Source: an uncultured Nitrospiraceae bacterium (lineage in GTDB: Bacteria; Nitrospirota; Nitrospiria; Nitrospirales; Nitrospiraceae). Taken from it: DNA of 64,000 nt. Below, in pieces: positions 30,008 through 55,816 of this stretch. How positions within the stretch are numbered: the stretch's first letter is position 1; each line of letters opens with the position of its first letter. The stretch is taken from assembly GCA_963706325.1 (NCBI GenBank), contig CAVPLT010000004.1, forward strand, positions 64,001-128,000, in the 5' to 3' direction. The notes below the pieces were generated by a model, which searched no databases, was not told the origin of the DNA, and was given only the letters and a program-made list of their open reading frames with translations. The position numbers and the translations under genes were made by a program.

Positions 30008-31267
30008 ATGGCAGCCAAGCGGACGGTCACTCAATTGGAACAGGCCTTGCGCGAAAAAACACGCGAAGTGGATGTCCTGCATCGTATCAGCGAGTCGATC
30101 AACAATACCCTCGACCTTGAGTCGGTGCTTCGGCATATCGTCGATATGGTCGTAGAAGTGACCAAGGCCGATGCCTGCCTGCTTTATCTGATCTCCGACG
30201 GCAGGGACGAACTCATGCTACGAGCCTCGAAAAATCCCCATCCTAAATTGATCGGACGCATCACCATTGGGCTGGGCGAGGGGATCACCGGCTGGGTGGC
30301 CAGAGAACGGACTCGTGTGGTGATCCCGAATAACGCCAGCGATGATTCTCGGTTCAAGTTCTTTCACAACCTTCCGGAGGATCGCTACCAGGCCTTTGTC
30401 TCGGTGCCTATCACGACCAAGCTGGAGGTCGTCGGAGTCATCAATGTGCAGCACAAACGGTCGCGACGGTATCGGCCTGACGAGTTGGCATTACTCTCGA
30501 CGATCGCCACGCAGGTGGGCGGGGCCATCGAAAACGCCCGACTCTATGATCAGATGACACGCAAGGCTCTCCAGCTCGACACACTCTCACAGGTGTCGGA
30601 AACCGTGTCGTCAAACCGATTGATTGAGGATGTGTTGCAACTCATCGTCACGATGACGGCGCAAATGATGGGGTCGAAGATTTGTTCCATTATCTTGTTG
30701 GATCAGGCGACAGGCGAACTGCGAATCGCCGCCACGCAAAGTTTAAGCGAGCAGTATCGCCGCAAGCCCAATGTCAAGATCGGTCAAAGTATCAGCGGGC
30801 GGGCCGTTCAAGATCGTCGTCCGATCATCGTGCCCGACGTCACCAAAGAAAGCGCATATATGTACCCGGATATGGCGACAAAAGAAGGGCTGTGTTCGCT
30901 CCTGTGTGTGCCGATGCTGGTTCGGGAGAAAGGTATCGGGGTCATCAATACCTACACCTCTAAGCCGCATACCTTTACGGCCGAGGACGTCAAGCTCATG
31001 CAGGCCATCGCCAATCAGGCTGCAATTTCTATCGAGCATACGACGTTGCTTGAGAAGTCGTTTGAGATGCAAGAGGCGTTACAAGTCCGCAAGCTGCTCG
31101 ACCGGGCTAAAGGATACCTCATGCGGGCGAAGAGGTTGTCGGAGGAGGAGGCATTCAAGCTGATTCAGCGACAAAGCATGGACCTTCGCAAGTCCATGCG
31201 AGAAATTGCGGAAGCCATTTTGCTGGCAGGTGAAATTGAAGAGCGGGCCGACAGAAATAGAGGCTAG
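30008..31267 (+). CDS. GAF-GAF-ANTAR RNA-binding antitermination regulator
   Basis: Two GAF repeats (GEGITGWVA..SVPI..VVGVINVQ; GQSISGRAV..LCVPML..GVIN) and a C-terminal ANTAR helix bundle RKLLDRAKGYLM...LSEEEAFKLIQRQSMDLRKSMREIAEAI. Confidence 0.93.
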   Translation: MAAKRTVTQLEQALREKTREVDVLHRISESINNTLDLESVLRHIVDMVVEVTKADACLLYLISDGRDELMLRASKNPHPKLIGRITIGLGEGITGWVARERTRVVIPNNASDDSRFKFFHNLPEDRYQAFVSVPITTKLEVVGVINVQHKRSRRYRPDELALLSTIATQVGGAIENARLYDQMTRKALQLDTLSQVSETVSSNRLIEDVLQLIVTMTAQMMGSKICSIILLDQATGELRIAATQSLSEQYRRKPNVKIGQSISGRAVQDRRPIIVPDVTKESAYMYPDMATKEGLCSLLCVPMLVREKGIGVINTYTSKPHTFTAEDVKLMQAIANQAAISIEHTTLLEKSFEMQEALQVRKLLDRAKGYLMRAKRLSEEEAFKLIQRQSMDLRKSMREIAEAILLAGEIEERADRNRG

Positions 31268-31271
31268 CCTG

Positions 31272-32234
31272 TTATTGAGGGCGTTCTGCTGGCCGCGCGG
31301 GAGGAGATGGTTTGGCGGGCGCGCTGCTTGGTTCGGTTTGATGCTCCCTCAGTTGCCGTCTCATATCTTGAAGTTCCTTTCGAAGTTCCTCGACCTCTGA
31401 ATCCTTCTTCTTCAAATCTTCCCGAATGTCCCGAAGGTCGGTCTCTGCCTCCGTTGGGTGAGCGAGCGGCCCCGCGGGCAATGCCTGTGTCTTCACGGCG
31501 GGCGGACTTGTGACGGCAATCGTCGGCGACGGTGGGGGCAGTCGTGCGAGGAGGTCATAATCGATGATCAGGACATTTGCCGGGTCTTCCGCAAATGTTG
31601 GTGCAAATTGATCGGAACGTAGGGCTTCCTCGGGCACGAACAATACCCGGCGATTTAGGAGGCCATGGGAAGTGGGCGTGCGGCGATTGGGCATGTTCAC
31701 GGTTTCCGGATCATCTCGCCGTTGACGGTACTCGGTCAAATAGACATAGAGTGAACGTCCGTACGCCAATACCCGGCCGCTCGTGATTTCTGGAAATGCA
31801 TGCCCAAGTGGAGGCTCCGAGGAGCCGACCGCTGCACCAACGCGTTCTCGATATCTCCCGTCATTAGTCTGTATCAGGCGAAACCCTACCTGTTGATCGG
31901 ACGCCGCCTGTTTCAAACCCTCTGCAATAGCAGGAGCCAGAAAAGCGATTTCGGTTCCTGAAAACACGGGGACGGTCGGCGTTTCGCTGGCGGTCAAGGC
32001 CCGTAACAGTCCGGTTTGTTCGCGAATGATCATGCCCTGTAAGCTGCGGGCGATCAGTGCTTGGTCGAGTCGAATAGGATGGCTTGCTTGAAACTGGCGA
32101 TCGGGAAGACGATCAAGAAATACCATGCCTTGCGCGGATTCCTCGACGAGCCAGTCGACTCGCGAACCGATCGTACATCCTGCAGCTAAGAGGCAGCAGG
32201 CCAAGGCGAATGCAACAGAGCGACGGCAGTCCAT
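31272..32234 (-). CDS. Hypothetical lipoprotein with C-terminal coiled coil
   Basis: Signal peptide ending LAAGC (lipobox); Pro-rich linker and coiled coil; GAGG-like RBS; paralogue remnant at 45541-46457. Confidence 0.75.
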   Translation of the reverse strand: MDCRRSVAFALACCLLAAGCTIGSRVDWLVEESAQGMVFLDRLPDRQFQASHPIRLDQALIARSLQGMIIREQTGLLRALTASETPTVPVFSGTEIAFLAPAIAEGLKQAASDQQVGFRLIQTNDGRYRERVGAAVGSSEPPLGHAFPEITSGRVLAYGRSLYVYLTEYRQRRDDPETVNMPNRRTPTSHGLLNRRVLFVPEEALRSDQFAPTFAEDPANVLIIDYDLLARLPPPSPTIAVTSPPAVKTQALPAGPLAHPTEAETDLRDIREDLKKKDSEVEELRKELQDMRRQLREHQTEPSSAPAKPSPPARPAERPQ

Positions 32235-32323
32235 GAGGTGATTCCTGTTTCAAGTTCAGGCTGGACGGGCCTAGTGTAACATAGACAACCGTCGAAACAG
32301 GAAGACCTCGTCCCGTCTTATGC

Positions 32324-32353
32324 TTGACAGCGATGCGTTCAAAAGCGTATACA
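32324..32353 (+). promoter_or_regulatory. Candidate promoter of the porin-urt-ure operon
   Basis: TTGACA-N18-TATACA; same shape at 46529 and 55571. Confidence 0.6.
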
Positions 32354-32378
32354 CCCCACCTGTATGCGTTGGCGGTTT

Positions 32379-32437
32379 GGACAATGACGTCCTCATCTCA
32401 TCGCAGACATCAATAACGCAGAGGACAATGACGTCCT
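32379..32437 (+). promoter_or_regulatory. ANTAR-binding dual hexaloop hairpin (leader 1)
   Basis: GGAC-AATGAC-GTCC at 32379-32392 and AGGAC-AATGAC-GTCCT at 32422-32437; loops have A1/G4. Confidence 0.85.
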
Positions 32438-32475
32438 TTTGGTCCGAAGGCTGGACCGGAAGGGCGTTTTTTTTT
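32431..32475 (+). terminator. Intrinsic terminator overlapping ANTAR hairpin 2 (leader 1)
   Basis: ACGTCCTTTTGGTCC pairs with GGACCGGAAGGGCGT, followed by a T9 run. Confidence 0.88.
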
Positions 32476-32536
32476 GGCGCGTTGGCTCCTCCGGTCTGGT
32501 TCATTCCAATCATATGTAACCAGGAGGGCGATCAGG

Positions 32537-33928
32537 ATGAGGGCACGAATGTCAGGAGGACTCATATGGGGGGCGGTCATGATGATGATCGTCGCCGCCA
32601 CGGTTTCGGTGAGAGCAGAAGAGCAGAGTGCGGGAGAGCAGAGTGCGGGAGAGGCGGCTGGAGCTGGACGTCTCAGCCGGGAAGTGGAAACGCCCCCGGC
32701 AGTGATTTGCGGAGGCTGTGTGAATCCCAGCTTTTGGACGCGAACTCAGGGCAAGGGCAGTATCGTCCCCTATGGCCGTATCGAATTGGATGCGATTTAT
32801 AGCAATAGAAATACCAACCCACTCGATCCCGGTCAGTTCAACGGCTACGCGACCGCCGCCGGAAAAAGCAGTAATGCCTCCTCCACCCTCAACCCTCGTT
32901 ATAGCGTGTTCGGCCTCCGAGCCGACCGGACTGACGGGAAACACACACTCACCGGTGTCGTAGAAGCGGATTTTTACAGCCAAACGGACAATGCCGGCAA
33001 TATTTCGCCCCGCCTGCGATTGGCCAACGTCAAGTACTCACCGAACAATAGTCGGACGACCATTACGGCAGGTATGGATTGGACGCCGATCATGTCGTCC
33101 CATCCGAATCTAATCGATTTTTCAATCATGGGCTATAACGGCAATCTGTGGCAGCGTCTTCCGCAGATCACCGTGAAGCAGCAATTCACCGAAAGCGTCA
33201 ACGGCCTCCTGACGGTCATGCGATTCGAACGCGGACTGTCGGCCATTCAACCCCAGACACAACGGCGGCCTTTTCAAGGCGCGGGCGCGGGGGCGGCGGC
33301 TCCCGGCAGTTGCGGGACCAGCGGCTTTGCCTGTTCCGAAAACGCCTTCAACGATCCGGTCCAGATGCCCTACGTGGGGACGCGATTCGCTTACATGGGG
33401 ACTGGTGATCAGGCGGGCTTCATGATGGCGCTGAGTGCGGCCGTTCGGCATTACCGCTCTGCGCCCACGCCTGGAGGTATTCCTGCCGGAAACGATATCA
33501 ATTCATACCTCGTAGGCGCGGAACTCGCGGTCCCCTTGACCAGCCGATTGAAGTTTACCGGTGAGGTGGGCTATGGCCAGGCGCTGGGAGTGGAATTTTT
33601 CCGCTTTGGACAGGAGCGGAACCTCGGCACCGGAAAGGCAATCCGTACCGTTGTCGGGTGGGGAGAGTTAGATTATGCCTACGATCGGCAGCTCACCCTA
33701 ATTGCAGGATATGGGTTCGACAACCCGCTGAATTCCGATCTGCGTGGCACCACCGCCGGGCCAGATACGCAGTATGTGCTCAATCATCGGACCTATCTGA
33801 CCGCCGTCCGCCACATCTGGGGAGATTTGTACGCGTCTTTCGAGTGGAATCACCTCATGACTGAATGGTCCACCAGCGAACATTTTGCCGGCGATAATTT
33901 CATGCTCTCAACTTGGTATAACTTCTAG
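32537..33928 (+). CDS. Putative outer-membrane porin heading the urea operon
   Basis: Signal peptide, YGRIELDAIY, VEADF, PRLRLA (DcaP-like pattern), terminal aromatic strand WYNF; AGGAGG RBS. Confidence 0.75.
   Translation: MRARMSGGLIWGAVMMMIVAATVSVRAEEQSAGEQSAGEAAGAGRLSREVETPPAVICGGCVNPSFWTRTQGKGSIVPYGRIELDAIYSNRNTNPLDPGQFNGYATAAGKSSNASSTLNPRYSVFGLRADRTDGKHTLTGVVEADFYSQTDNAGNISPRLRLANVKYSPNNSRTTITAGMDWTPIMSSHPNLIDFSIMGYNGNLWQRLPQITVKQQFTESVNGLLTVMRFERGLSAIQPQTQRRPFQGAGAGAAAPGSCGTSGFACSENAFNDPVQMPYVGTRFAYMGTGDQAGFMMALSAAVRHYRSAPTPGGIPAGNDINSYLVGAELAVPLTSRLKFTGEVGYGQALGVEFFRFGQERNLGTGKAIRTVVGWGELDYAYDRQLTLIAGYGFDNPLNSDLRGTTAGPDTQYVLNHRTYLTAVRHIWGDLYASFEWNHLMTEWSTSEHFAGDNFMLSTWYNF
32621..32653 (+). 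repeat. In-frame 15-bp tandem duplication in the porin N-terminus
   Basis: GAGCAGAGTGCGGGA x2 plus GAG, encoding EQSAG-EQSAG-E. Confidence 0.9.
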
Positions 33929-33955
33929 CCGAGCGATGATGGCGAAAGGAGTCTC

Positions 33956-35323
33956 ATGATGAGTTCTCAAAAACCACAGGATGGAAATGACGCGATATCC
34001 GGTTCAAAGCCCGAGGTGCCTTCCTCGCGGCGCGAGTTTCTGCTCCACAGTTCGAGGACCGCGGTTGGCATTGGAGTCGCGGCATTACTGGGAAATCTCG
34101 GCCACTGGGCCCTTTCCTACGGGGCCGACAAGGAACCGATCAAGATCGGCGTGCTGCACTCGCTCAGCGGCACGATGGCGATCAGCGAAGTGTCATTGAA
34201 GGATGTCGTCTCGATGGCAGTTGAAGAGATCAATGCCAAGGGCGGACTGCTGGGGCGCCAGCTGAAACTGGTCATTGTCGACCCGGCTTCCAATTGGGAC
34301 CTGTTTGCGGAAAAGGCCAAGCAGTTGTTGGTGCAAGATAAGGTCGCCGTGGTCTTCGGCTGCTGGACATCCGTCAGCCGGAAATCCGTCTTGCCGGTGT
34401 TTGAAAAGAACAACGGCTTGCTCTTTTATCCCGTACAGTACGAGGGAGAAGAGTGCTCCCGAAACGTATTCTACACCGGGGCGGCGGTGAATCAGCAGGC
34501 CGTGCCGGCCGTTGAATATCTGATGAGCAAAGAAGGCGGCGGGTTTAAAAAGTTCTATCTCTTGGGGACGGACTACGTCTATCCAAGGACCACGAACAAG
34601 ATTCTTCGCGCGATGTTGCTGGCCAAGAAAGTGTCCGCAGCCAATATCATGGAGGAATATACTCCATTCCACCATCAAGACTATCAAACCATCGTCGGCA
34701 AGATTAAAAAGTTTTCGGCCGGTGGTGGCGCCTGTGTCATTAGTACGATCAACGGCGACAGCAATGTGCCGTTTTACAAAGAATTCGCCAATCAGGGGTT
34801 GCGCGCTGAAGATGCGCCGATCATGGCCTTCAGCGTCGCCGAGGACGAACTACGTGGGATGGACAAGACAGCCTTGGTCGGCCATTTGGCGGCATGGAAT
34901 TATTACCAGAGCGTCGACGCGCCTCAGAATAAGCAGTTTGTGGCAAGCTTTAAGGCCTATTGCAAAAAGAATAACTTGCCGGACGGAGACAAGCGGGTGA
35001 CCGACGATCCCATCGAGGCGGCCTATTTTGGGGTGCATGTCTGGAAGCAGGCGGTCGAGAAAGCGGGCAGCACCGATGTCGACGCGGTTCGCACGGCGGT
35101 GTATGGACAGAAATTCCTCGCGCCGGGTGGCGAGATCATGATGGATGAGGCCAACCACCATACAAACAAGCCGGTATTGATCGGGGAAATCCTCAAGGAT
35201 GGTCAATTCAAAGTTGTGTGGCGGTCAAGAGGTTTGGTCAAACCAGAACCCTGGAGCGAATACACCAACCCCGAAAAGGGATGCGATTGGGTCAAGCATC
35301 AAGGAACCTATAAAAAAGCCTGA
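33956..35323 (+). CDS. urtA: Urea ABC transporter substrate-binding protein
   Basis: Tat motif SRREFL; IKIGVLHSLSGTMAISE, FGCWTSVSRK, FYPVQYEGEE, GTDYVYPR. Confidence 0.95.
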   Translation: MMSSQKPQDGNDAISGSKPEVPSSRREFLLHSSRTAVGIGVAALLGNLGHWALSYGADKEPIKIGVLHSLSGTMAISEVSLKDVVSMAVEEINAKGGLLGRQLKLVIVDPASNWDLFAEKAKQLLVQDKVAVVFGCWTSVSRKSVLPVFEKNNGLLFYPVQYEGEECSRNVFYTGAAVNQQAVPAVEYLMSKEGGGFKKFYLLGTDYVYPRTTNKILRAMLLAKKVSAANIMEEYTPFHHQDYQTIVGKIKKFSAGGGACVISTINGDSNVPFYKEFANQGLRAEDAPIMAFSVAEDELRGMDKTALVGHLAAWNYYQSVDAPQNKQFVASFKAYCKKNNLPDGDKRVTDDPIEAAYFGVHVWKQAVEKAGSTDVDAVRTAVYGQKFLAPGGEIMMDEANHHTNKPVLIGEILKDGQFKVVWRSRGLVKPEPWSEYTNPEKGCDWVKHQGTYKKA

Positions 35324-35349
35324 CGGAGACCGTCACTCAGGCGTCGGCA

Positions 35350-36913
35350 ATGAATGAAGGTACGCTGCGAATGAATCTCGTCGTTGGGATGGTGTTGGTC
35401 TGGTGCTGTGTGGCATGGGGCGTGAGTGATGGGTTGGCGGCGGAGGCGCTCACGGGTGGCTCCCCGCCGATTCAGCTTGAGCAGGCGTTAAAAGACCTGT
35501 CCAGTGAGGAGGAGGCGACGCGAGAGCAAGCGATTCGTGCACTGATCGCACAGGGGGACGCGACCTGGCTGCCACGCCTGGATGAGTTGCGGGCCAACGC
35601 GGATCGAAGTCTGCGCATGGCGATCAAGCCTGTGGCGGATGCCTGGAGACACCGCGCCAATCTGAGCAGTCCGGATGTCGATACGCGGCGGTCGGCAGCG
35701 GCTGATTTGGGGGCCAGCGGAAGGACAGTGGCCCTTCCTTGGCTGGAAGCTGCGGCGGCGGCCGAATCCCATCGTTGGGTTCGGTATGCGATGGATGAGT
35801 CGGCCCAGATGTTGCGGCTCGCTTCCGAGGACCCGGCGGCGAAGACTCAGGCTGCAACGAAATTGGGAGAGATGCGCAGCCAGAATGCCGTACCGGCATT
35901 GAAGGAACTGGTCCAAGCGGCCGCTGAGGCAGATGGAAGCGAGCAGCAGAAGATTGTCGCGCGTGCGGCTGCTGCCGCCATCGATCAAATCGAAACATGG
36001 AACGTGTGGTCGACGGCAATCGAAACGGTGTTTCGCGGCATCAGCTTAAGTTCCATCCTCCTCATCATGTCCGTAGGGCTCGCGATCGTCTTCGGGTTGA
36101 TGGGCGTCATCAACATGGCGCACGGCGAGCTGATGATGATCGGCGCCTATGCCACCTTTGTGATGCAGGAATGTTTTAAACTCTATTTTCCTCCAACCTG
36201 GTTTGATGCCTATTACCTCGCGGCCCTCCCGGCTTCGTTTCTGTGCCGCGGCACTATTCGGATTGTTGCTAGAAGCGACGGTCATTCGATTCCTGTACGG
36301 CCGCCCGCTCGAAACGATGTTGGCAACCTGGGGAGTCAGCCTGATTTTGATCCAGGGAGCGCGCATCTATTTCGGTGATTTGACGGCTGTCTCCGCTCCG
36401 GCCTGGCTCAACGGCGGGACGCAGGTCATGGTCGGGGTGTTCCTGCCCTTCAATCGCCTGTTCATCATCGGCCTCTCCATTCTCTGTGTCACGGGTATTT
36501 ATGTGTTGCTGTTCCGGTCGAGCGTAGGATTGCGAGTGCGGGCGGTCACGCAGAACCGGAACATGAGCGCCTGTCTGGGCATTCCCACCAGGAAGGTAGA
36601 TGCCTACACGTTTGCGTTCGGTTCGGGGTTGGCTGGTATAGCGGGCTGGGCCCTGACCTTAGTGGGCAATGTCGAGCCGGGACTGGGGCAGAACTACATC
36701 GTGGACTCCTTTATGGTGGTGGTGACCGGCGGAGTCGGAAAACTTGCCGGAACCATTATTGCCTCGCTCGGCATCGGCGGATTGAACAAACTGATGGAGC
36801 CCAGTCTCGGAGCGGTCTACGCCAAGGTGTTGATTCTTGTGCTGGTGATTCTCTTCCTGCAGCGACGACCCTCGGGGCTGTTTGCGGTTAAGGGGCGTCA
36901 CGCCGAGGGGTAA
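35350..36913 (+). CDS. urtB: Urea ABC permease UrtB with N-terminal HEAT-like repeats; one frameshift near 36238-36247
   Basis: GLAIVFGLMGVINMAHGE in ORF 35350-36378 continues as LYGRPLETMLATWG..VDSFMVVV.GGVG in ORF 36203-36913; one extra base. Confidence 0.9.
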
Positions 36914-36929
36914 GGATAGAGCAGGAGGA

Positions 36930-38078
36930 ATGGCAGAACCATTGGCACCACAGTCGAATGCGGAGCGGAACGAAGGCACCCTCTTTTGGGTCGTCGGTTT
37001 CGTGCTTCTATTTGTGCTTCCCATCCTCAATGTGTTGCCGGAGGAGGATTCCTGGCTGCACCTTTCCGATTTTGCTCTGAACCGATTCGGAAAGTTCCTC
37101 GCCTTTGCCATTCTAGCGCTCGGCCTCGATTTGATCTGGGGATATGCGGGTATTCTCAGTTTGGGACAGGGCGTCTTCTTTGGGTTGGGCGCCTACTGTA
37201 TGGGGATGCACCTCATGCTCACCATCGGGAATGAGAGTGTTTACGGCAGCGCCCTGCCGGATTTCATGGTCTGGAATCAGGTCACTGAATTGCCGTTTTT
37301 CTGGAAGCCGTTTTATAGCTTCACCGCTGCCGTTGTGGCGGGTGTACTGGTGCCGGCCGGCTTCGCGCTCCTGTTCGGGTTTCTTGCCTTCCGCAGCCGA
37401 ATCCGCGGCGTCTATTTCGCCATCATCACGCAGGCTCTGGCGCTCATGGCTTGGCTCGTCTTCAATCGGAACGAAACGAATCTGGGCGGGACCAACGGCC
37501 TGACTGACTTCAAGACCATCCTCGGATTTCGGTTGTCCGAGCCTGGGACGCAACTGGCCCTCTATGTCGTCACGGTATTGTGTCTCGGGGGAGCCTATCT
37601 ATTCTGCCGCTGGATCATCGCCTCGCGGGCCGGTCGAGTCCTGATTGCCATTCGTGACAGCGAACAGCGAGTCCTCTTTTCCGGCTACTCGCCGGCCAAC
37701 TACAAACTGTTCGTCTTCGTGGTGTCGGCGGCGCTGGCCGGCCTCGCAGGCATTCTCTATGTTCCTCAAGTCGGCATCATCACCCCGGCGCAAATGGGGG
37801 TGCTTCCCTCGCTTGAAATGGTGATCTGGGTGGCGGTGGGAGGCCGCGCGACGCTTGTGGGAGCCATCGTCGGAGCAGTGGGCGTCAACCTTGGCCGCAG
37901 TATCCTCACGAACCATTTTCCGGAACTGTGGCCATTCTTTCTAGGCGGGCTCTTTGTCGTCGTCGTGCTGCTGTTTCCCGACGGCGTCATGGGGATCGCC
38001 AAGAGGGCAAGTGAGAAGATGACGGTGCGAGCCGACCGTATACGAAAGGCTCCGGCCGTGGAAGAGGAGCAGGCATGA
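36930..38078 (+). CDS. urtC: Urea ABC permease UrtC
   Basis: ALGLDLIWGYAGILSLGQG.FFGLG.Y, GVYFAIITQAL, GGTNGLTDF, VAVGGR. Confidence 0.94.
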   Translation: MAEPLAPQSNAERNEGTLFWVVGFVLLFVLPILNVLPEEDSWLHLSDFALNRFGKFLAFAILALGLDLIWGYAGILSLGQGVFFGLGAYCMGMHLMLTIGNESVYGSALPDFMVWNQVTELPFFWKPFYSFTAAVVAGVLVPAGFALLFGFLAFRSRIRGVYFAIITQALALMAWLVFNRNETNLGGTNGLTDFKTILGFRLSEPGTQLALYVVTVLCLGGAYLFCRWIIASRAGRVLIAIRDSEQRVLFSGYSPANYKLFVFVVSAALAGLAGILYVPQVGIITPAQMGVLPSLEMVIWVAVGGRATLVGAIVGAVGVNLGRSILTNHFPELWPFFLGGLFVVVVLLFPDGVMGIAKRASEKMTVRADRIRKAPAVEEEQA

Positions 38079-38842
38079 CGGAACACGGCTCCATCATCTA
38101 CTTGGAAGGCGTCACCGTCGATTATGATGGTTTCAAAGCCTTGAACAATTTGAATTTCATCGTGAACCATCGCGAACTCCGAGTGGTGATCGGGCCGAAC
38201 GGCGCAGGGAAGACGACATTGTTGGACGTCATCTCAGGTAAGACCAAGCCGGCAGCTGGGCGTGTCATCTTCGGCAAGGATACCGATCTCATCGGCATGC
38301 GAGAGTACGAGATTACGCAACTCGGCATCGGCCGAAAATTTCAGGCTCCGTCCATCTATGGCAATCTTACCGTCTGGGAAAATCTTGACCTGTCGTTGAG
38401 CCGTCCCAGCAAGGGCGTTTTGTTCACGTTGAGAGGCCAGTCCACAGCGGCAGAACGGCAACAGATCGACGAGGCCTTGGACACTATTGGATTGACCGCA
38501 CAGGCGCGTCTGCGAGCGGGATCGCTGTCTCACGGCCAGAAGCAATGGCTAGAAATCGGCATGGTGATTCTGCAGGATCCGGAGTTATTGCTAGTGGATG
38601 AACCGGTGGCGGGCATGACAGACGAAGAGACCGCGCAAACGGGACGGTTGCTTCAGTCGCTGGCGGAAAAACACGCAATTATCGTCATTGAGCACGACAT
38701 GGAGTTTGTGCGGCAGATCGCGCGTATCGTGACGGTGCTGCACGAGGGAACCGTCATTTGCGAAGGACCGGTAGAAAAGGTCCAGGCTGATGACAGAGTG
38801 AGAGAGATTTATCTGGGACGCCAAAAGGTGGCACATGCTTAA
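38075..38842 (+). CDS. urtD: Urea ABC ATPase UrtD
   Basis: [38 protein letters not shown]. Confidence 0.95.
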   Translation: MTEHGSIIYLEGVTVDYDGFKALNNLNFIVNHRELRVVIGPNGAGKTTLLDVISGKTKPAAGRVIFGKDTDLIGMREYEITQLGIGRKFQAPSIYGNLTVWENLDLSLSRPSKGVLFTLRGQSTAAERQQIDEALDTIGLTAQARLRAGSLSHGQKQWLEIGMVILQDPELLLVDEPVAGMTDEETAQTGRLLQSLAEKHAIIVIEHDMEFVRQIARIVTVLHEGTVICEGPVEKVQADDRVREIYLGRQKVAHA

Positions 38843-38973
38843 CAGGATGGTGAAAAGCGCTCCCAGCGTAGTTCTCGGCTCGGCAAGGTCCTCAACGTAC
38901 CCGGAGGGCACGCCTCCGGTCTTCTCTCGCCGGCGGCGTTGTGGAACACTTTTGACCTCCTTTGAACATCCTG
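38843..38973 (+). repeat. Palindromic intergenic repeat element, copy 1
   Basis: Ends CAGGATG.T.AAA/TTT.A.CATCCTG; core CCTCAACGTACCCGGAGGGCACGCCTCCGG. Confidence 0.8.
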
Positions 38974-38995
38974 GAGGAGTAATCGAAGCAATACT

Positions 38996-46528: not shown

Positions 46529-46558
46529 TTGACAGTCCATTCTGGCCGGTGATATACA
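46529..46558 (+). promoter_or_regulatory. Candidate promoter of the nadE-amtB-PII-glnD-glnA operon
   Basis: TTGACA-N18-TATACA. Confidence 0.6.
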
Positions 46559-46821: not shown

Positions 46822-48591
46822 ATGCGATCGATACGGATTGCGATGGCACAAATGAACACGACGGTCGGTGACCTGTCAGGCAATGTTCGCCGCATTACGG
46901 GCTGGATACGAGAGGCTCGTCGGGCACGCGCAGATTTGGTAGCTTTTCCGGAGTTGGCGATCACTGGGTATCCGCCGGAAGATTTGCTGTTCAATCCTCG
47001 CTTTCTTGATGAGACGTATCGTGCATTGAAGATGGTGGCGGCGGAGGCGCGCGGACTGGTTGTGGTGGTGGGGTATGTCGGTCGGGGAACGAAGACGGGG
47101 CCGTTTCCCGATCCGTCCTCTTTATCTTCCGTCGGTCGCCATGATTTGTACAACGCAGCGGCTCTGTTGTTCGGTCGTCGCGTGCTGGCCAGCTACTGTA
47201 AGCGACATTTGCCGAACTACGGGGTGTTCGATGAGAGCCGCTATTTTCAGCCCGGGCGTCGCCTCCCGCTCCTGGTGCTGAATGGCACCAGGATTGCGGT
47301 CAACATCTGCGAAGACATTTGGTTTCCTGAGGGACCCACAAGGATGCAGGCCGCAGCGGGAGCAGAAGTCATCGTCAACATCAACGCATCTCCATTTCAT
47401 ATAGGCAAATGCCGGATGCGTGAGCAAGTGTTAGCAACGAGGGCGCGGGATAACCGGGTCATTGTGACGTACACCAATACGGTCGGGGGGCAGGATGAGC
47501 TGGTCTTCGACGGCAGCAGCTTGATTGTCGATCAGACTGGCGAGATCATCGTGCGCGGGAAGGCGTTTGAAGAAGATCTGATCATTGCCGATCTTGATGT
47601 TGCGGCGGTGGGTCGGGCACGGCTGGCGAGGGGGCGTAAGAAGTCGATACCTCCTCGGGTGGCAGTTCTCGTAGACCGAATTGCCGTTCGGTTACCCGCC
47701 AGAAAATCACGGTCGCTGGCTGTTCCGGCGCTGAGCCCGCAACTGGAGCCGTTGGAGGAGGCCTATCGGGCGCTCGTCCTTGGGGTGCAAGATTACGTCC
47801 GGAAGAACGGCTTTAAGCGTGTCGTCATCGGTTTGAGCGGCGGAGTAGACTCGGCCATCACGGCAGTCATTGCGGTGGATGCCCTCGGCGCGGAGAACGT
47901 GCTCGGGGTCTTCATGCCCTCGCCCTACACCTCAAAGGTCAGCCGCGAGGATGTCGTCGATCTAGGCCGTCGGCTCCAGATTCAGGTGGACACGCTGTCT
48001 ATCACGTCGACGTTCAAGAGTTATCTGCGTACGCTCACCCCCTCCTTCAAAGGCTCGCGCCCCGATACGACCGAAGAAAATCTTCAAGCCCGTATCAGGG
48101 GCAACCTGTTAATGGCCTATTCGAATAAGTTCGGCCATCTCGTACTGACGACCGGCAACAAGAGTGAGATGAGCGTGGGGTATGCAACGCTCTACGGCGA
48201 TATGGCGGGCGGGTTTGCCGTCATCAAAGATGTGCCGAAAACCATGGTCTATGAACTCGCGCATCTGAGGAATGCGTTGGGGCCGTCTCCGGTGATCCCG
48301 AATCGTATTCTGGAACGCCCTCCCACGGCGGAACTGCGCCCCGATCAAAAGGACGAGGACAGTTTGCCGCCGTATCCGCTGTTGGATCCTATTCTGAAGG
48401 CTTATGTGGAGGAAGACCGGACGCTGGAAGACATTGTGGCCATGGGGTTCGATAGAGCGACGGTGGCTCGGGTCATGACCATGGTCGACCGAAGCGAGTA
48501 TAAGCGGCGCCAAGCGCCGCTGGGGATCAAGATCACCTATCGGGCATTCGGCAAGGATCGGCGCATGCCGATCACAAACGGGTATCGATAG
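46822..48591 (+). CDS. nadE: Glutamine-dependent NAD+ synthetase
   Basis: Nitrilase-fold N-terminus (FPELAITGYPPED, ICEDIW) plus GLSGGVDSA, ENLQARIRG, TGNKSE..VGY.TLYGD, EYKRRQAP. Confidence 0.97.
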   Translation: MRSIRIAMAQMNTTVGDLSGNVRRITGWIREARRARADLVAFPELAITGYPPEDLLFNPRFLDETYRALKMVAAEARGLVVVVGYVGRGTKTGPFPDPSSLSSVGRHDLYNAAALLFGRRVLASYCKRHLPNYGVFDESRYFQPGRRLPLLVLNGTRIAVNICEDIWFPEGPTRMQAAAGAEVIVNINASPFHIGKCRMREQVLATRARDNRVIVTYTNTVGGQDELVFDGSSLIVDQTGEIIVRGKAFEEDLIIADLDVAAVGRARLARGRKKSIPPRVAVLVDRIAVRLPARKSRSLAVPALSPQLEPLEEAYRALVLGVQDYVRKNGFKRVVIGLSGGVDSAITAVIAVDALGAENVLGVFMPSPYTSKVSREDVVDLGRRLQIQVDTLSITSTFKSYLRTLTPSFKGSRPDTTEENLQARIRGNLLMAYSNKFGHLVLTTGNKSEMSVGYATLYGDMAGGFAVIKDVPKTMVYELAHLRNALGPSPVIPNRILERPPTAELRPDQKDEDSLPPYPLLDPILKAYVEEDRTLEDIVAMGFDRATVARVMTMVDRSEYKRRQAPLGIKITYRAFGKDRRMPITNGYR

Positions 48592-48606
48592 CAGCGTGCG
48601 GTATGA

Positions 48607-48650
48607 TGACCGACAATGACGCCGGTCAGCGGGGCTGGCAATGGCGCCAG
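48607..48650 (+). promoter_or_regulatory. Internal ANTAR-like dual hairpin with no terminator
   Basis: TGACCGAC-AATGAC-GCCGGTCA (one mismatch) and CTGGC-AATGGC-GCCAG, 6-nt linker. Confidence 0.6.
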
Positions 48651-48716
48651 AGAATAAGACACGCGGCCTTAGACGGAGGCCGTCGACACAATGTTGTTAT
48701 TTCTTTGGGAGGTGCC

Positions 48717-49605
48717 ATGCAGGTGCTCGGAGGACAGTATGTGCGAGGGTGGATGCGTAGATGCATGATGGCACCAATGTTGTTGGTCGGCTCGAATGCT
48801 CAGGCGCAGGACGTAGAGGTCGTCGCACCCAAGGCAATAACAGCTAGATGGACAAGGACCAAGCACTCGGTGTCGGTGACGATGCAAGCGGACAGTTTTT
48901 CCGGCTCCAACCCATCGATTTATGGAACGTACGGACTAACCGACAATGTCGCGCTCGCCTTCAACTTCTCCAATCGGACCATGATCAGCAGAGTCGGCAT
49001 ACATGACAATGCGCCATGACTGGAAAGGGATGTGGGCTTGAATTTGACCTTCCTAGAGAAACGGCTGTCCATCACACCCATGATCGGGTTCGCACATGGT
49101 CAGCTCTTGTCGGCACGGGTGCATACTTTCCAAACGGCGGAGGCAGTGTGAACAGACGCACCACCGCGTTTGAACGCGCCATGCCGAATGTAACCATGAA
49201 TTACCTCGACAATCGGTTCGAAGGGGAGTTCTATCTGGGGTACTACAAGGTGATTCGGAGCGAAGGCGGAAGCGACAGCGGGGGAGTAATCAAATTGTGG
49301 CAATCCCGGCGATATGAATCGCCTGGGGTCGGCTCAGGCGGGTGGCAGGGGTACCTGAGACTTCTTGCACTTCTGGGTGAGCGCCGGAGTACGCGTGAAC
49401 AGCATGTGGTCGATGGGGGCGCATCACGAACATCTGCTGACGACCCGTGACAGCAGCGCACCGGGAGCTGCACAGGACTACTATCGCTGGATCGGGCCCT
49501 ATGTCGAAATGAACTTCCGGGCAACATGGCCTTCCGGTTTACGGTAAGCAAAGACCTGACCGATAATCAGGATTTCTACAAATTGAATTTACCAAGGCCT
49601 TTTGA
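48717..49605 (+). pseudogene. Multiply frameshifted outer-membrane beta-barrel gene (resembles DUF6733-type proteins)
   Basis: GGAGGT RBS and signal peptide; beta-strand segments spread over different frames (SVSVTMQADSF, GLNLTFLEKRLSITPMIG, FEGEFYLGYY, DFLHFWVSAG, YRWIGPYVE, FYKLN-TKAF*); terminal Phe; family name from recall. Confidence 0.7.
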
Positions 49606-49686
49606 TTCCGGCCAGCCGCGTGAGGCTCAGGACGAGAAGGGGTGTCCTTCTGGTCCCGAGTTTCCCGATGCGAAGGAGGCTCGATC

Positions 49687-51012
49687 GTGACCATATTGAA
49701 GCGTTCCGGCATCCTACTCTGTTCAGGGTTGGGACTGCTCATGGCGTTGCTGATTGGAATTTCTGACGCCGGGGCCCAGAGTGCGCCATTAAAAGCCGAT
49801 AGCGGGGATACGGCCTGGGTGCTCGTGTCGTCAGCATTCGTGCTGGCGATGCTGATGCCCGGGCTCGCGCTGTTTTACGGAGGATTGGTGCGCACCAAAA
49901 ACGTGCTCGCGACTATCATGCAGAGCATCATGATCTTGAGCGTGGTCAGCGTGCTGTGGGTCCTGTTCGGGTACAGCCTGGCCTTCGGACCGGATAAAGG
50001 CGGTGTGATTGGCGGCTTGGACTGGGTCGGGCTCAGCGGGGTGGGCGCCGAACCGCATCCAATCTACGGACCGACGATTCCTCACCAGGCCTTCGTGTTG
50101 TTTCAGATGATGTTTGCGGCGATCGCTCCGGCGTTGATCACGGGCGCCTTCGCCGAACGGAAGCGTTTTACGTCGGTCGTGTTGTTTGCGGGGATCTGGT
50201 CGCTCGTGGTCTATGTGCCGCTGGTACATTGGATCTGGGGTGGGGGATGGTTGGCCAAATTGGGCGCCTTGGATTTTGCCGGCGGCGCGGTCATCCACAT
50301 CAACTCCGGCGCATCGGCCCTGGTCTGCGCGATTATGTTGGGCAAGCGGCGAGGGTATGGGACTGATTATATGGCGCCCCACAATCTTCCGATGACGTTG
50401 CTCGGGACAGGCTTTTTGTGGTTCGGGTGGTTTGGTTTCAACGGCGGCAGCGCGCTGGGCGCGAATGGCATTGCCGTGTCGGCCATCCTCGCGACCCATA
50501 CGGCGGCGGCTATGGGTGCCATGGCCTGGTGTGGGGTCGAGTGGGCACATCGCGGCAAGCCTACCGTATTGGGGGTCGCAAGCGGAGCCGTCGCCGGGCT
50601 CGCGACCGTGACGCCCGCGGCAGGCTATATCAGTCCGCTTTTCGCGCTGGCGATCGGTACCGTGGCCGGTATGGCCTGCTATGGAGCGATTGTCTGGAAG
50701 GGGCGATTCGGCTATGATGACTCGCTTGACGTCGTGGGGATTCATGGAGTCGGGGGAGTGATCGGGATTCTCGCTACCGGACTCTGTGCCAGCAAGCTTA
50801 TCAATCCGGCCGGCGCCGATGGCCTGCTCTATGGCAATCCTGGTCTCTTGGGCATCCAGCTGCTCGTTGTGGTAGTCACGGCGATTTTCTCGATGGTCGG
50901 CACATTTGTCATCCTCAAATTGGTCGATTCCATGACAGGGTTGCGCGTGTCTCCTGAAGAGGAAGCGAACGGGCTGGATTTGAGTCAACATAACGAGCGG
51001 GCTTATTCGTGA
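49687..51012 (+). CDS. amtB: Ammonium transporter
   Basis: DTAWVL, PGLALFYGGLVR, FQMMFA, DFAGGAVIH, WFGWFGFNGGS, DDSLDV.GIHG. Confidence 0.98.
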   Translation: MTILKRSGILLCSGLGLLMALLIGISDAGAQSAPLKADSGDTAWVLVSSAFVLAMLMPGLALFYGGLVRTKNVLATIMQSIMILSVVSVLWVLFGYSLAFGPDKGGVIGGLDWVGLSGVGAEPHPIYGPTIPHQAFVLFQMMFAAIAPALITGAFAERKRFTSVVLFAGIWSLVVYVPLVHWIWGGGWLAKLGALDFAGGAVIHINSGASALVCAIMLGKRRGYGTDYMAPHNLPMTLLGTGFLWFGWFGFNGGSALGANGIAVSAILATHTAAAMGAMAWCGVEWAHRGKPTVLGVASGAVAGLATVTPAAGYISPLFALAIGTVAGMACYGAIVWKGRFGYDDSLDVVGIHGVGGVIGILATGLCASKLINPAGADGLLYGNPGLLGIQLLVVVVTAIFSMVGTFVILKLVDSMTGLRVSPEEEANGLDLSQHNERAYS

Positions 51013-51048
51013 ATGACGCCGTCGACTGAGAGCGGTCGCCGGTCCTAG

Positions 51049-51396
<348 letters not shown>

Positions 51397-51398
51397 GT

Positions 51399-54101
51399 AT
51401 GGCACAGCCACTGGATACGGGTTCGCAAATATTGCAGGAGTCAGCCCCCGCAGCGGGGGCGCATCGGCTGGCGGATCAGCGCGAGGCGATTCACCAACGG
51501 CTGCTGACCGGTGCGTCGGGTGACGAGGTAGTGGCGATGACCACGGATGTGGTCGACGGCTTGATCGTAGGACAGTACCGCACCGCGGCGCGAACTGGTG
51601 GAGAGGCATTCACGACCGCCGGATTTCAGCATTGCTGTCTGGTCGCGCTGGGCGGCTATGGCCGGCGGGAGATGGCGCCACACTCTGATATCGACCTGAT
51701 GTTTCTGTTTCACCCCGATGCGGCGAAGGTCATCCCAGAGCTGGTGAAACAGGTGCTCCATCCCTTGTGGGACAGTGGATTTCAGGTGGGCCATAGCGTG
51801 CGTACGATCCAAGACTGCGTGGATTTGGGGCTCGCTGATTTGACGGTTCGCACCTCGATGATGGAAGCGCGGTTTCTCGCCGGGAGCGCCGAACTCTTTC
51901 AGCAATTCCATGCGCGCTATGTCAGAAAGGTGGTGTCGAGACGGGCCGATGCCTACGTGGAGCAGAAGGTTGCCGAGCGACATCGCGAGTACCAGAAGTT
52001 CGGCGAGACCGTGTATTTGCTGGAACCGAACGTCAAGAAAAGCCAAGGCGGGTTGCGCGACCTGCACCTCCTACAGTGGGTCGGGTTGGCGCGGTATCAG
52101 GCGCCCACAATTCGTGAATTGTCCGACCGCGGGATTTTGTCCCAAGCCGACTACCAGGCCATCAAGGAGGCGCGGGAGTTTCTCTTGCGCGTTCGTTCGT
52201 TTCTCCATATTCGGGCCGGCATGGCGCAGGAAATTCTGACCTTCGATGAACAGGTCTGGTTGGCCACACAGCTCGGTTTTACCGATCGCCCGCATCTTCT
52301 CGCCGTCGAGCAGTTCATGCAGCAGTATTATCTTCATACCATGGGGCTTCATGCCGCTTCGATGCGATTCGTGGAACGTTGCCGTCGCCGCTCATTGTGG
52401 CAGCGGCTCGTCCGATGGTTGCCGTCACCGCGGCTCGATCAGTACTTCGTGGTTGATGGCCAAGCCTTGACGGTGCCCGTCGAGTTACGTTCCCAGGTGC
52501 TGGATCGGCCGGCCACGCTTCTGAGGCTCTTTGACCTGGCACGCTCAAAAAAAATGAGCATCGATCCGTCGCTGCTGGAAGACATTCACCGGCATGCGGA
52601 GATGTTGTCGGTCGAGGGGTTCCGTACGCCGGAGACGGCGCGTACCTTCCTGTCGATCTTGGCCGGGCCTGGAACAGCGCGAACATTGGAAGCCATGCAT
52701 CGCGCGCATCTGTTGGAAAAGCTGGTGCCGGCCTTCGCGCGCGTGCGCGGACTGATGCAATTCAATCAGTACCACAAGTACACGGTTGATGAGCATAGTC
52801 TCCTGGCGGTGGCCAAGGCGGAAGCCTTAGCTGACCATCAGGGTGTGTTGGGTGAAGTGTATCGGGAGATCAAGCGGAAGGACTTGCTGCATTTGGCCGT
52901 GTTGCTCCACGACCTGGGCAAGGGGCATGAGGAAGACCATAGCGAAGTCGGAAAACGATTGGCTGAAGATACGGCGGCCCTGTTGGGATTCGATGAGCGG
53001 GACACCCGAACGCTCGTCATGCTCGTCCACCGTCACTTACTGATGGCCCATACGGCGTTTCGCCGGGATCCTTACGATGAAAAAGTATTACTGCCGTTTG
53101 CCCGTGAAGTCGGCACGCCCGAGGTGCTCCGCAAGTTGCTGGCTCTGACGGCGGCTGATATTGCCGCGGTCGGTCCGGACGTGCTGACGAAATGGAAAGA
53201 GTCGCTGTTGATCGAATTGTATCTGCGGGCCATGCAGGAAGTATCCGGCGAGCGTGAGACGGTCGATGAACCGCAACGATTGGCGCTTGTCGTCGCTGAC
53301 GTGGCATCGCAGCAGGCTTCGGATCCGGATATTCCAACTGACAGAGTATGGATCCAATCTGAGTTGGAACAGTTTCCACTACGCTATGTGTATGGGACAC
53401 CTGCCCGGCGCATTGCCGCGCATCTCGCCGCGATACATGGACTGCAGGTCGGCGGAGTGATGGTCGATACCGATTTCAATCCCCAGCTAGGGACCTGTGA
53501 ATATGTGGTGGTCGCGCATAACGATCTGATTCCCGGTTTGTTTTCTAAAATTGCCGGAGTCATGGCGGCGGGGGGGTTGCAGATTCTGGATGCCCAGATT
53601 GTGACGCGAAAAGACGGCATCGTCGTCGATACGTTTCAAGTCGCCGACCCCGACTATCAAGGCGCTCCTCCTGCGGAACGACGCGAGTCGATCGGCCAGA
53701 GAATCACGGAGGTGTTGACCTGCCGCCAGACCATCGAAGCGATGATGCGTCGCGGGGCCAGGCTCAGCATGGGACGGTCATTTCCGGCGCATCGGCAACC
53801 CGCTGAGGTGCGGATCGACAATGAAACGTCCGACCGGTTCACCATCCTCGACGTGTTTGCTGACGATCGGCAAGGGTTGCTCTACGTCATCACCAATGCA
53901 ATTTTTCAGTTGGGATTGTCCGTCCATGCGTCACGAATTTCCACCCGCCTCGATCAGGTGGCGGACGTGTTTTATGTGACGAGTATGGAGGGCAAGAAGG
54001 TGGAGGAGGCTGGTCGGCTGGAATCGATCCGGACGGCGATCCTCAGCGCGATCGAGACGTTTCTCGGTGCCAATGCGGCGCAAGACGCAGGGCGTGGGTA
54101 G
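51399..54101 (+). CDS. glnD: PII uridylyltransferase/uridylyl-removing enzyme
   Basis: ALGGYGRRE..PHSDIDL, EPNVK...GGLRD, YHKYTVDEH, LLHDLGKG HD domain, two C-terminal ACT domains. Confidence 0.97.
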   Translation: MAQPLDTGSQILQESAPAAGAHRLADQREAIHQRLLTGASGDEVVAMTTDVVDGLIVGQYRTAARTGGEAFTTAGFQHCCLVALGGYGRREMAPHSDIDLMFLFHPDAAKVIPELVKQVLHPLWDSGFQVGHSVRTIQDCVDLGLADLTVRTSMMEARFLAGSAELFQQFHARYVRKVVSRRADAYVEQKVAERHREYQKFGETVYLLEPNVKKSQGGLRDLHLLQWVGLARYQAPTIRELSDRGILSQADYQAIKEAREFLLRVRSFLHIRAGMAQEILTFDEQVWLATQLGFTDRPHLLAVEQFMQQYYLHTMGLHAASMRFVERCRRRSLWQRLVRWLPSPRLDQYFVVDGQALTVPVELRSQVLDRPATLLRLFDLARSKKMSIDPSLLEDIHRHAEMLSVEGFRTPETARTFLSILAGPGTARTLEAMHRAHLLEKLVPAFARVRGLMQFNQYHKYTVDEHSLLAVAKAEALADHQGVLGEVYREIKRKDLLHLAVLLHDLGKGHEEDHSEVGKRLAEDTAALLGFDERDTRTLVMLVHRHLLMAHTAFRRDPYDEKVLLPFAREVGTPEVLRKLLALTAADIAAVGPDVLTKWKESLLIELYLRAMQEVSGERETVDEPQRLALVVADVASQQASDPDIPTDRVWIQSELEQFPLRYVYGTPARRIAAHLAAIHGLQVGGVMVDTDFNPQLGTCEYVVVAHNDLIPGLFSKIAGVMAAGGLQILDAQIVTRKDGIVVDTFQVADPDYQGAPPAERRESIGQRITEVLTCRQTIEAMMRRGARLSMGRSFPAHRQPAEVRIDNETSDRFTILDVFADDRQGLLYVITNAIFQLGLSVHASRISTRLDQVADVFYVTSMEGKKVEEAGRLESIRTAILSAIETFLGANAAQDAGRG

Positions 54102-54133
54102 TCATTTTCATCGGCGGTTGAAAGGAGGAGGGG

Positions 54134-55543
54134 ATGAACGTTCGTGAGGTCTTAGATTTTGCTAAGAAAAACAAGGTCCAGGTCGTGGACATGAAATTCG
54201 TGGACCTGATCGGAACCTGGCAGCATTTCACCATTCCGATCAGCGAACTGACGGAAGGCCTGTTCAAGGACGGCTCGGGGCTGGATGGCTCGTCGATTCG
54301 AGGCTGGAGAGCGATCAATAACAGCGACATGTTGCTCGTGCCTGATCCGTCAACCGCCTGTCTGGACCCCTTCTGCTCCGTACCGACCCTGAGCCTGGTC
54401 GGCAATGTGGTCGACCCGATCACGCGTGAAACCTATGATCGGGATCCGCGATATATCGCGCAGAAGGCGGAGAAATATCTGCAAAGCACCAAGATCGGCG
54501 ACATTTCCTATTGGGGCCCGGAAGCCGAATTTTTTATCTTCGATCATGCGCGTTATGACCAAACGAATCACAGTGGGTATTACTTCATCGATTCCGATGA
54601 GGGCGTGTGGAATATGGGGCAGGAAGGCGTGAACCTGGGCGGCAAGATCCGCCACAAGGAGGGATACTTCCCTGTGCCGCCGACTGACACGCAGCAGGAC
54701 ATCCGCACCGAAATGGTGCTGGAAATGGAAAAGGCCGGCATCGCCACCGAGAAACATCACCATGAAGTGGCCACGGCGGGTCAGGCGGAAATCGACATTC
54801 GGTTCGATAGCCTGGTGAGAACCGCGGACAAAATGATGATGTTCAAATACATCGTCAAGAACGTCGCGCGGCGGCATGGCAAGACTGCCACCTTCATGCC
54901 GAAACCCATTTTCGGAGACAATGGGTCGGGCATGCATACGCACCAGAGCATCTGGAAAGAGGGCAAGCCCCTGTTCGCCGGGAAAGAGTATGCGGGCGTG
55001 TCGCAGATGTGTTTGCACTACATCGGGGGCATCCTGAAGCATGCGCCGGCGCTGGCCGCCTTCACCAATCCCTCGACCAATTCCTACAAGCGACTGACGC
55101 CGGGCTTTGAAGCGCCGGTGCTGCTGGCCTATTCAAGCCGCAACCGGTCTGCCGGCATTCGCATTCCCATGTATTCACCCAGCCCTAAGGCGAAGCGGAT
55201 TGAAGTGCGTTTCCCTGATCCGGCTGCAAACCCCTACCTTGCCTTTGCCGCCATGCTCATGGCCGGCTTGGACGGGATCGAAAACAAAATCAATCCTGGC
55301 GAGCCGGCGGAGAAAGATCTGTACGATCTCGAAGCCAAGGAAGCCGCCAAGATTCGAACCATGCCGGGGAGTTTGGATGAGGCGCTCAATCACCTCGAGA
55401 AGAATCACCAATTCCTGCTGAAGGGCGGCGTATTTAGCGAAGACCTGATCGAGTCTTGGATCGCCTACAAGCGTAGTAAGGAAGTGGATACGATGCGGTT
55501 GCGGCCGCATCCGTATGAATTCTTCCTGTATTACGACGTGTAG
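54134..55543 (+). CDS. glnA: Glutamine synthetase type I (GSI-beta)
   Basis: [42 protein letters not shown], adenylylation loop DLYDL. Confidence 0.99.
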
Positions 55544-55570
55544 CCTGCCGACCCCGGCATCAACAATCCC

Positions 55571-55600
55571 TTGACGATGCTACAGGGGCGATGGTATACA
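55571..55600 (+). promoter_or_regulatory. Candidate promoter of the FNT-cynS-nirA operon
   Basis: TTGACG-N18-TATACA. Confidence 0.6.
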
Positions 55601-55619
55601 TGGTCCTGCGGGTGAGAGA

Positions 55620-55678
55620 AGGCAACGAGGCCTAATTTACACCGGTACTACAATATGTACACGGACAAAGGCGTCCGT
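55620..55678 (+). promoter_or_regulatory. ANTAR dual hairpin, module 3a
   Basis: AGGC-AACGAG-GCCT at 55620-55633 and ACGGAC-AAAGGC-GTCCGT at 55661-55678. Confidence 0.82.
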
Positions 55679-55712
55679 CATTCTTACAAGAGTGGCGGAC
55701 GTCTTATTTTTT
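55670..55712 (+). terminator. Intrinsic terminator 3a overlapping its ANTAR hairpin
   Basis: GGCGTCCGTCATTC pairs with GAGTGGCGGACGTC, then TTATTTTTT. Confidence 0.82.
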
Positions 55713-55713
55713 A

Positions 55714-55783
55714 GCCGACGGCGAAGTCGGTAAAGTTAATCTTGGTGAGGCATGACAGCCTCGCCCCAGGACAACGACGTCCT
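55714..55783 (+). promoter_or_regulatory. ANTAR dual hairpin, module 3b
   Basis: GCCGAC-GGCGAA-GTCGGT (G1/G4 loop), intervening stem 55744-55765, then AGGAC-AACGAC-GTCCT at 55768-55783. Confidence 0.75.
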
Positions 55784-55816
55784 CTTCCCAGCCGCGGGAT
55801 GAGGGCGTTTTTTTTT
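55777..55816 (+). terminator. Intrinsic terminator 3b overlapping its ANTAR hairpin
   Basis: ACGTCCTCTTCCC/GGGATGAGGGCGT followed by a T9 run. Confidence 0.88.

Follow-up and report, generated by a model that had tools for sequence, protein, structure and literature searches.

What controls nitrogen acquisition in Nitrospira? These bacteria dominate nitrite oxidation and include comammox (complete ammonia-oxidising) organisms, and the published accounts of their nitrogen gene cluster that we found name no regulator. A 64,000-nucleotide stretch of an uncultured Nitrospiraceae bacterium (GenBank assembly GCA_963706325.1, contig CAVPLT010000004.1, positions 64,001–128,000; hereafter the window) raises the question sharply, as a gene for a GAF-GAF-ANTAR protein lies there with three nitrogen operons whose leaders carry RNA hairpins. 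An earlier note on this DNA had proposed that the protein acts as an antiterminator on four terminator-overlapping modules in those leaders. Our analysis supports that reading: the protein and modules very probably form an ANTAR antitermination regulon over the three operons, with read-through when nitrogen is short. The reading is supported by the conservation of the modules, covariation in their first hairpin, the RNA-binding residues of the protein, the nitrogen theme of the targets, and the joint absence of regulator and modules from one group of relatives. The outcome is a proposed regulator with its RNA sites and target operons, together with a candidate for the signal that it senses.

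The regulator gene (30008–31267) and all three operons lie on the forward strand, and the operon contents given by the earlier note agree with Pfam. Operon 1 (32537–45532) contains a porin-like gene, urtABCDE, a lipoprotein gene, ureABC, and ureFGD; the first of these has no Pfam match and is porin-like by Atlas alone. Operon 2 (46822–55543) contains nadE, a split DUF6733 gene, amtB, PII, glnD, and glnA. Operon 3 (55852–59023) contains a formate/nitrite transporter gene (FNT), cynS, and nirA.

The leaders share a recurring motif. A search of the window found exact matches of GGACAAYGACGTCCT at 32379, 32423, 46627, and 55769, with variants at 46575, 55620, and 55663; with up to three mismatches, there were 8 matches against 3.37 expected. 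Folding places these copies in forward-strand modules, in which two hairpins (P1 and P2) precede a terminator. Module 1 (32379–32475) has the loop AAUGAC in both P1 (32383–32388) and P2 (32427–32432), then a terminator stem (32430–32468) and a T run. Module 2 (46575–46677) has the loops AACGGA (46581–46586) and AACGAC (46631–46636), and its terminator has a T run at 46670–46677. Modules 3 and 4 stand in series ahead of the cyanate/nitrite genes: module 3 (55620–55712) has the loops AACGAG (55624–55629) and AAAGGC (55667–55672) and a terminator stem at 55668–55705, while module 4 (55714–55816) has the P2 loop AACGAC (55773–55778) and a terminator with a T run at 55808–55816.

Unconstrained, all four modules fold as the terminator, with the 3′ strand of P2 taken into the stem and the T tract behind it, so each P2 is predicted to overlap an intrinsic terminator, as had been claimed. 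Forcing P1 and P2 to form in the full leader costs 5.7, 10.3, and 9.2 kcal/mol for modules 1, 2, and 3, and transcripts of these modules cut just past P2 form both hairpins (pair probability 0.94–1.0). The pattern is also specific. Modules 1–3 have two six-base loops with A at position 1 and G at position 4 (A1/G4) on stems of at least 3 bp, and when the whole genome (4.2 Mb) was searched by script for two such loops with a terminator overlapping them, 3 sites came up, each of them in the nitrogen leaders; on six order-3 Markov genomes the script gave 1, 0, 0, 1, 0, and 0. An RNA model matched the four modules and nothing else in the genome. Modules 1, 2, and 3 scored 64.6, 69.3, and 49.3 bits, all three being in the training set, and module 4, which was outside it, scored 47.3 bits.

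Module 4 is where the earlier description needs amending. The earlier note had described paired hexaloop hairpins in the leaders. Modules 1–3 have two A1/G4 loops each, but module 4 has only one: its first hairpin (55714–55731), 53 nt before P2, has the G1/G4 loop GGCGAA (55720–55725). Of 19 distinct linkers orthologous to that of module 4, 17 contain a G1..G4 hexaloop, in agreement with the EutV-RNA structure, in which G4 alone is read by the protein (PMC8934654; statements from papers cited by accession refer to the parts of those sources consulted). Another hairpin in the module 4 linker (55747–55762, loop AUGACA) was considered as P1 and rejected, since it has no G4 and is not conserved.

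Transcription of the leaders is predicted to start close by. Each of the three has a TTGACR-18-TATACA element just upstream, which we read as a predicted sigma70-type promoter: TTGACA-18-TATACA at 32324–32353 and 46529–46558, and TTGACG-18-TATACA at 55571–55600, all on the forward strand. Of the 115 related loci listed (see below), 102 have TTGAC no more than 130 nt upstream, against a background of 10.7%, and none of the three leaders yielded a -24/-12 motif. Contigs from RNA runs of other strains (four of 7 runs, small shares) gave no coverage at 55556–55867.

Are such modules conserved? When species genomes were scanned for P2 together with the terminator end, at least 115 stretches were found, and the counts that follow are for the matches listed. 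Of the 80 titled records, 73 are Nitrospirota and 4 are other named taxa. These motif matches and the names of homologues assign the window to Nitrospiraceae. Although absent from the search pattern, a second RACAANGNNGT hexaloop hairpin lies within 62 nt upstream in 96 of the 115. In these 96 modules the loop-to-loop distance from P1 to P2 is 26–53 nt, and the linker has a median length of 24 nt (range 8–37, and 12 nt or less in 4) and no conserved sequence. The genes behind the listed matches include nadE, the urea porin gene, FNT, and amtB, and the fetched regions add BBP2 porin genes that precede amtB, as well as cynS, glnA, genes for NMT1-type ABC transporters, and a single sigma54 activator gene. 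Several open reading frames (ORFs) downstream of related modules lack a Pfam match. The glnA leaders of ten more genomes were mostly uninformative because glnA is mostly operon-internal there, but one (G276) carries a module. In a distant family, f19, a single A1/G4 hairpin plus terminator precedes glnA in five of five genomes.

The earlier note had also called for a covariation check, which we made on 67 modules, 3 from the window and 64 of the 96 relatives. The invariance of P2 in this alignment is fixed by the search pattern and was not counted as evidence. P1 shows two-sided changes at 5 of 6 pairs (40 cells), and none of 500 shuffles scored as high; the shuffle control is inflated by relatedness, but slid controls score lower as well. 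The terminator caps differ in sequence (102 distinct) but still fold, at -7.8 kcal/mol against -3.2 when shuffled, with 71 of the 102 in the best 5%. These results bear on whether the repeats act as DNA rather than RNA. A GGAC-N6-GTCC palindrome close behind a predicted promoter could be the operator of a transcription factor, with the terminators incidental, but P1 tolerates G-U pairs and compensatory changes, P2 always overlaps the terminator on the transcribed strand, and the P1–P2 spacing varies freely over the range given above. We therefore regard DNA operators as extremely unlikely.

The protein has the features expected of the reader of such modules. It has 419 aa, and its gene stands directly behind aroB. 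Pfam gives a GAF domain (residues 35–175), a second GAF domain (about 204–345), and a C-terminal ANTAR domain (354–405; PF03861, 68.2 bits against a cut-off of 27.3), which confirms the domain reading of the earlier note; the ANTAR domain also matches the structure chains of Rv1626, EutV, and NasR. It is the sole PF03861 match of the genome (4.24 Mb, 96% complete). Pfam found neither a receiver domain nor a NIT sensor domain in the protein, so it belongs to neither the REC-ANTAR nor the NasR (NIT-ANTAR) class. In an alignment, the EutV RNA-contact residues R142, K143, K149, E160, and M172 correspond to R361, K362, K368, E379, and M391 of the regulator. R361 is kept in 32 of 33 regulator sequences and each of the other four in all 33, while the aromatic residue at EutV Y164 is F or Y in 32 of 33. 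The residues with which EutV reads G4 and the loop are thus conserved.

The mechanism class itself is already known from EutV, NasR, and Geobacter GnfR, each of which resembles the present system in part. In the eut leaders of EutV/EutW (PMC3369931, PMC8934654), two G4 hexaloops occur with the second inside the terminator, as here. The present system differs in the G1 that replaces A1 in the first loop of module 4, in a regulator without a receiver domain, and in the single-hairpin leaders of f19. NasR of Klebsiella oxytoca is likewise a one-component ANTAR protein that antiterminates nitrogen-assimilation genes, but it senses nitrate/nitrite through a NIT domain and serves one operon, whereas here the sensor is GAF-GAF and the operons are three (PMC7496416). 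The GnfK/GnfR system of Geobacter sulfurreducens (PMC2995071) also places several nitrogen operons, including glnK and amtB, under an ANTAR antiterminator, and the GnfR binding site CAGGCAANGGCGCC overlaps a terminator and is close to the GACAANGRCGTC of these leaders. GnfR, however, belongs to the response regulators: a kinase without a sensor phosphorylates it, and the system lies below an RpoN/GnfLM cascade. Here two GAF sensors sit in the same protein as the ANTAR domain, the promoters look sigma70-type, and the targets comprise genes for urea, ammonium, cyanate, and nitrite together with those of GS/PII. In other phyla, amt, PII, urea transporter genes, and glnA have been predicted to fall under ANTAR nitrogen regulons (PMC3369931).

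If the protein reads the modules, then the two should occur together, and the earlier note had suggested a scan of relatives for this. Of the 60 family genomes, 39 have a full-length regulator orthologue, as do 29 of 30 sister-family genomes, and f19 has orthologues at 43–46% identity; the gene usually stands beside aroB. The regulator-less family genomes are the 21 of 29 genomes of genus g2 with no ANTAR match, five of which are single contigs. The RNA model matched all 39 regulator-positive genomes but only 1 of the 21 without the regulator; a looser pattern matched all 39 and 3 of the 21.

The loci of the regulator-less genomes show what has gone. The nadE region was retrieved for all 21 except G156, and in 19 of these 20 loci aroB directly adjoins nadE, with no regulator remnant. 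G290 has a stub of the regulator gene, about 55 codons long and carrying a stop. All 20 loci retain PII and glnA, no modules were found in any of them, and amtB is present only as remnants, in G290 and G228. In five of five regulator-less genomes checked, urtA is retained with no module upstream. The informative part of the loss is this: urt and nadE-PII-glnA persist although their modules have vanished. Decay is also visible, with decayed modules downstream of glnA in G228, and, by eye, a retained terminator after glnA but a decayed P2 loop in G165, G236, and G268, three amoA-positive genomes of genus g5 in which the cyanate/nitrite genes are gone. Across the family, amoA is found in 20 of 21 regulator-less genomes but only 5 of 39 regulator-positive ones, all five in g5. 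Comammox clade A has Rh and no Amt while clade B has Amt (PMC6311188), and a GlnD difference between the clades has already been mentioned (bioRxiv 2023.08.04.551995). Nearly all of the regulator-less genomes match clade A, the clade being assigned by gene content only. The regulator and its RNA sites would extend this known Amt/GlnD difference.

Several observations weigh against the regulon. The RNA model was trained on Nitrospiraceae pattern matches, so its positive matches are partly by construction, and at E ≤ 0.01 it found no match in the distant regulator-positive genomes G240, G284, G010, and G028. The one regulator-less genome with a model match, G290, keeps an intact module, and some genomes have nadE behind the regulator gene without a module. 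The losses are also fewer than they look: a glnA tree (19 of 34 rows; six loci dropped) groups the regulator-less genomes in a single clade, and a quick nadE tree calls for two changes or more, so regulator and modules were lost in one or two events rather than 21, and most target genes went with them. As for the sequences themselves, a consensus promoter scanner called none of the three promoters, and EutV R168, N173, and R177 are mostly not retained among the 33 regulator sequences. The EutV linker is 5–12 nt, with function lost at 14 nt or with 20 nt added, whereas the median here is 24 nt. A long linker is not unique to these leaders because the predicted Geobacter ANTAR sites span 41–72 nt, as long as the modules here; by linker geometry, the leaders are not EutV-type and are closer to the Geobacter sites. 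Finally, in N. inopinata (clade A comammox), urt/ure transcripts are fairly high on ammonia and loosely raised on urea (bioRxiv 2023.08.04.551995), and this response to urea means that other control exists.

Could the attenuators then be real but under a different control, for instance by a metabolite riboswitch or some other RNA-binding protein, with the ANTAR gene a bystander? Linkers beyond the tolerance of EutV, often with extra hairpins, would suit this explanation, as would a regulator gene that stays at aroB whatever its neighbours. It is nevertheless very unlikely, as the linker sequence lacks the conservation of an aptamer, Rfam has no match at the leaders (its sole match is an unrelated ureB antisense family), the loop is nearly identical to the GnfR site, and the modules disappear from genomes that have lost the ANTAR gene. 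We therefore continue with the ANTAR regulon, for which the following mechanism is proposed. Sigma70-type promoters would fire just upstream of each leader, and unbound leaders would terminate at the T tract. The regulator, presumably a dimer, would hold P1/P2 open via G4, as EutV does, and its activity would follow nitrogen status so that read-through occurs when nitrogen is short. With two attenuators in series, the cyanate/nitrite operon would require higher regulator activity.

What signal would the protein sense? Both GAF domains have PtsP (EI-Ntr) as their top NCBIfam model and closest named family, with NifA second. The best named Protein Data Bank (PDB) matches are also PtsP GAF domains (3ci6 at 85.9 bits and 3trc at 65.8, with the next named family at 41.9), although the unnamed GAF structure 3e0y scores slightly above both. 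A structure model of the regulator (pLDDT 84.9) superposes on 3ci6 with an rmsd of 2.4 over 162 columns; whole-protein fold searches return generic tandem-GAF proteins, and Atlas returns generic GAF clusters. A representative protein search was dominated by multi-GAF proteins but supplied 8 full-length GAF-GAF-ANTAR relatives. EI-Ntr is inhibited by glutamine acting on its GAF domain, which there controls autophosphorylation (PMC4848567), whereas here the GAF domains are fused to an RNA-binding domain. We suggest that glutamine binds the regulator's PtsP-type GAF domains and inhibits it, and that loss of glutamine frees it. The circuit would then be negative feedback on the glutamine pool because glnA, glnD, PII, and amtB are all targets. 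Direct glutamine sensing is our best guess, at about even chances.

A different ligand would leave the regulon unchanged. The GAF domain of NifA binds 2-oxoglutarate, and this or another small molecule could bind and activate the regulator; two GAF domains could even read two signals. Against glutamine, the second GAF domain is nearly tied between PtsP (54.8 bits) and NifA (50.2), but the first clearly favours PtsP (75.7 against 47.9), as do the named PDB matches. We consider activation by such a ligand rather unlikely.

The regulator might instead be switched by PII or PII-UMP through a GlnD relay, as PII controls some NifA GAF domains. This was suggested by the joint loss of glnD and the regulator: glnD is found in 39 of 39 regulator-positive but only 2 of 21 regulator-less family genomes. 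However, glnD is itself a target, which accounts for its being lost together with the regulator, and G232 has glnD but no ANTAR. Family f19 has both the regulator and the hairpin before glnA, but none of its five regulator-bearing genomes has a glnD above cut-off. For this reason we prefer direct metabolite sensing and judge the PII relay unlikely, even more so than the alternative ligand.

Published expression data can be compared with the regulon. In N. moscoviensis on nitrite alone, most of the cluster is strongly transcribed and the urea genes moderately (PMC6606698), and in N. japonica the transcript for the assimilatory octaheme nitrite reductase is lower on ammonium (reported in PMC6606698 and PMC7522533). 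These patterns, with that of N. inopinata, are compatible with the regulon, and none is proof.

A broader proposal can be put forward only tentatively, at somewhat less than even chances. In it, the GAF-GAF-ANTAR protein would act as master regulator of nitrogen use in Nitrospira and its relatives, sensing glutamine directly and working by attenuation alone to do the job that NtrBC, GlnR, or NtcA has in other organisms; the tandem G1/G4 modules would set a stricter threshold for nitrite and cyanate; and clade A comammox would have deleted the regulator, its switches, amtB, and glnD. Neither PtsP nor NtrC was found above cut-off in this genome, but because it holds many sigma54 activators, the absence of NtrC is not established by that result. 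If the proposal is true, deletion of the circuit would explain the loose control of urea genes in clade A and set the two comammox clades, A and B, apart in a basic feature of their physiology. From the regulon itself, one would expect ammonium to repress urea genes tightly in canonical Nitrospira and clade B, not in clade A. Nitrospira genetics are dispensable here because regulator, sites, targets, and signal can all be tested in E. coli or in vitro.

A search of openly readable papers, which did not extend to the supplements of bioRxiv preprints, found no description of ANTAR proteins or antitermination in Nitrospira, and by term search Nitrospira is absent from the text and seven supplements of PMC3369931 and from PMC12591593, bioRxiv 660928, and PMC7496416. 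What appears to be new is the sensor type, the tandem module with a G1/G4 loop, and the joint loss of regulator and modules. The characterised one-component ANTAR proteins named in a 2020 paper (PMC7496416, in the parts consulted) are NasR and PAL, neither with GAF. If our reading is true, none of the antiterminators named in the literature we found would precede it as a characterised GAF-ANTAR protein.

Several minor observations concern relatives. In the sister-family locus L164 (8454–9920), a module precedes a sigma54-dependent activator, which could add a second tier under the ANTAR protein. Loci L073, L074, L076, and L113, some titled Clostridia or Omnitrophota, have a lone P2 hairpin plus terminator right behind a promoter, and with only one hairpin they resemble the f19 leaders. 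In L201, L202, L205, L206, and L169, all from distant genomes, a gene weakly similar to the GAF region of the regulator lies downstream of glnA. The amoA-positive genomes G228 (C1:2453618–2454735) and G290 (C50:30915–31315) hold only broken amtB pieces, and the queries used found no intact Amt/Rh transporter in either, G228 being a single contig; relics of the nitrogen cluster are present in both as well. In the regulator-less L186 (2792–4911), ORFs read by eye suggest a histidine kinase and LuxR-type pair directly upstream of urtA, a possible replacement control.

Others concern the window. Three genes are each split into two ORFs: urtB (35350–36913), urtE (38996–39705), and the DUF6733 gene (48603–49511), the last being a single 304-aa frame in relative L150. 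They could be either assembly frameshifts or pseudogenes, and the split stretches contain no homopolymers of 6 or more. The Rfam match (5_ureB_sRNA, 41464–41760, reverse strand) lies within a urease gene and is probably coding-sequence similarity. An unassigned 320-aa gene (31272–32234) and its degenerate paralogue (45604–46245), both on the reverse strand, are divergent to modules 1 and 2, and homologues occur at the same place in many relatives. An AIPR-family gene (59957–63449, reverse strand) lies between a CBS gene and glnE, convergent with operon 3.

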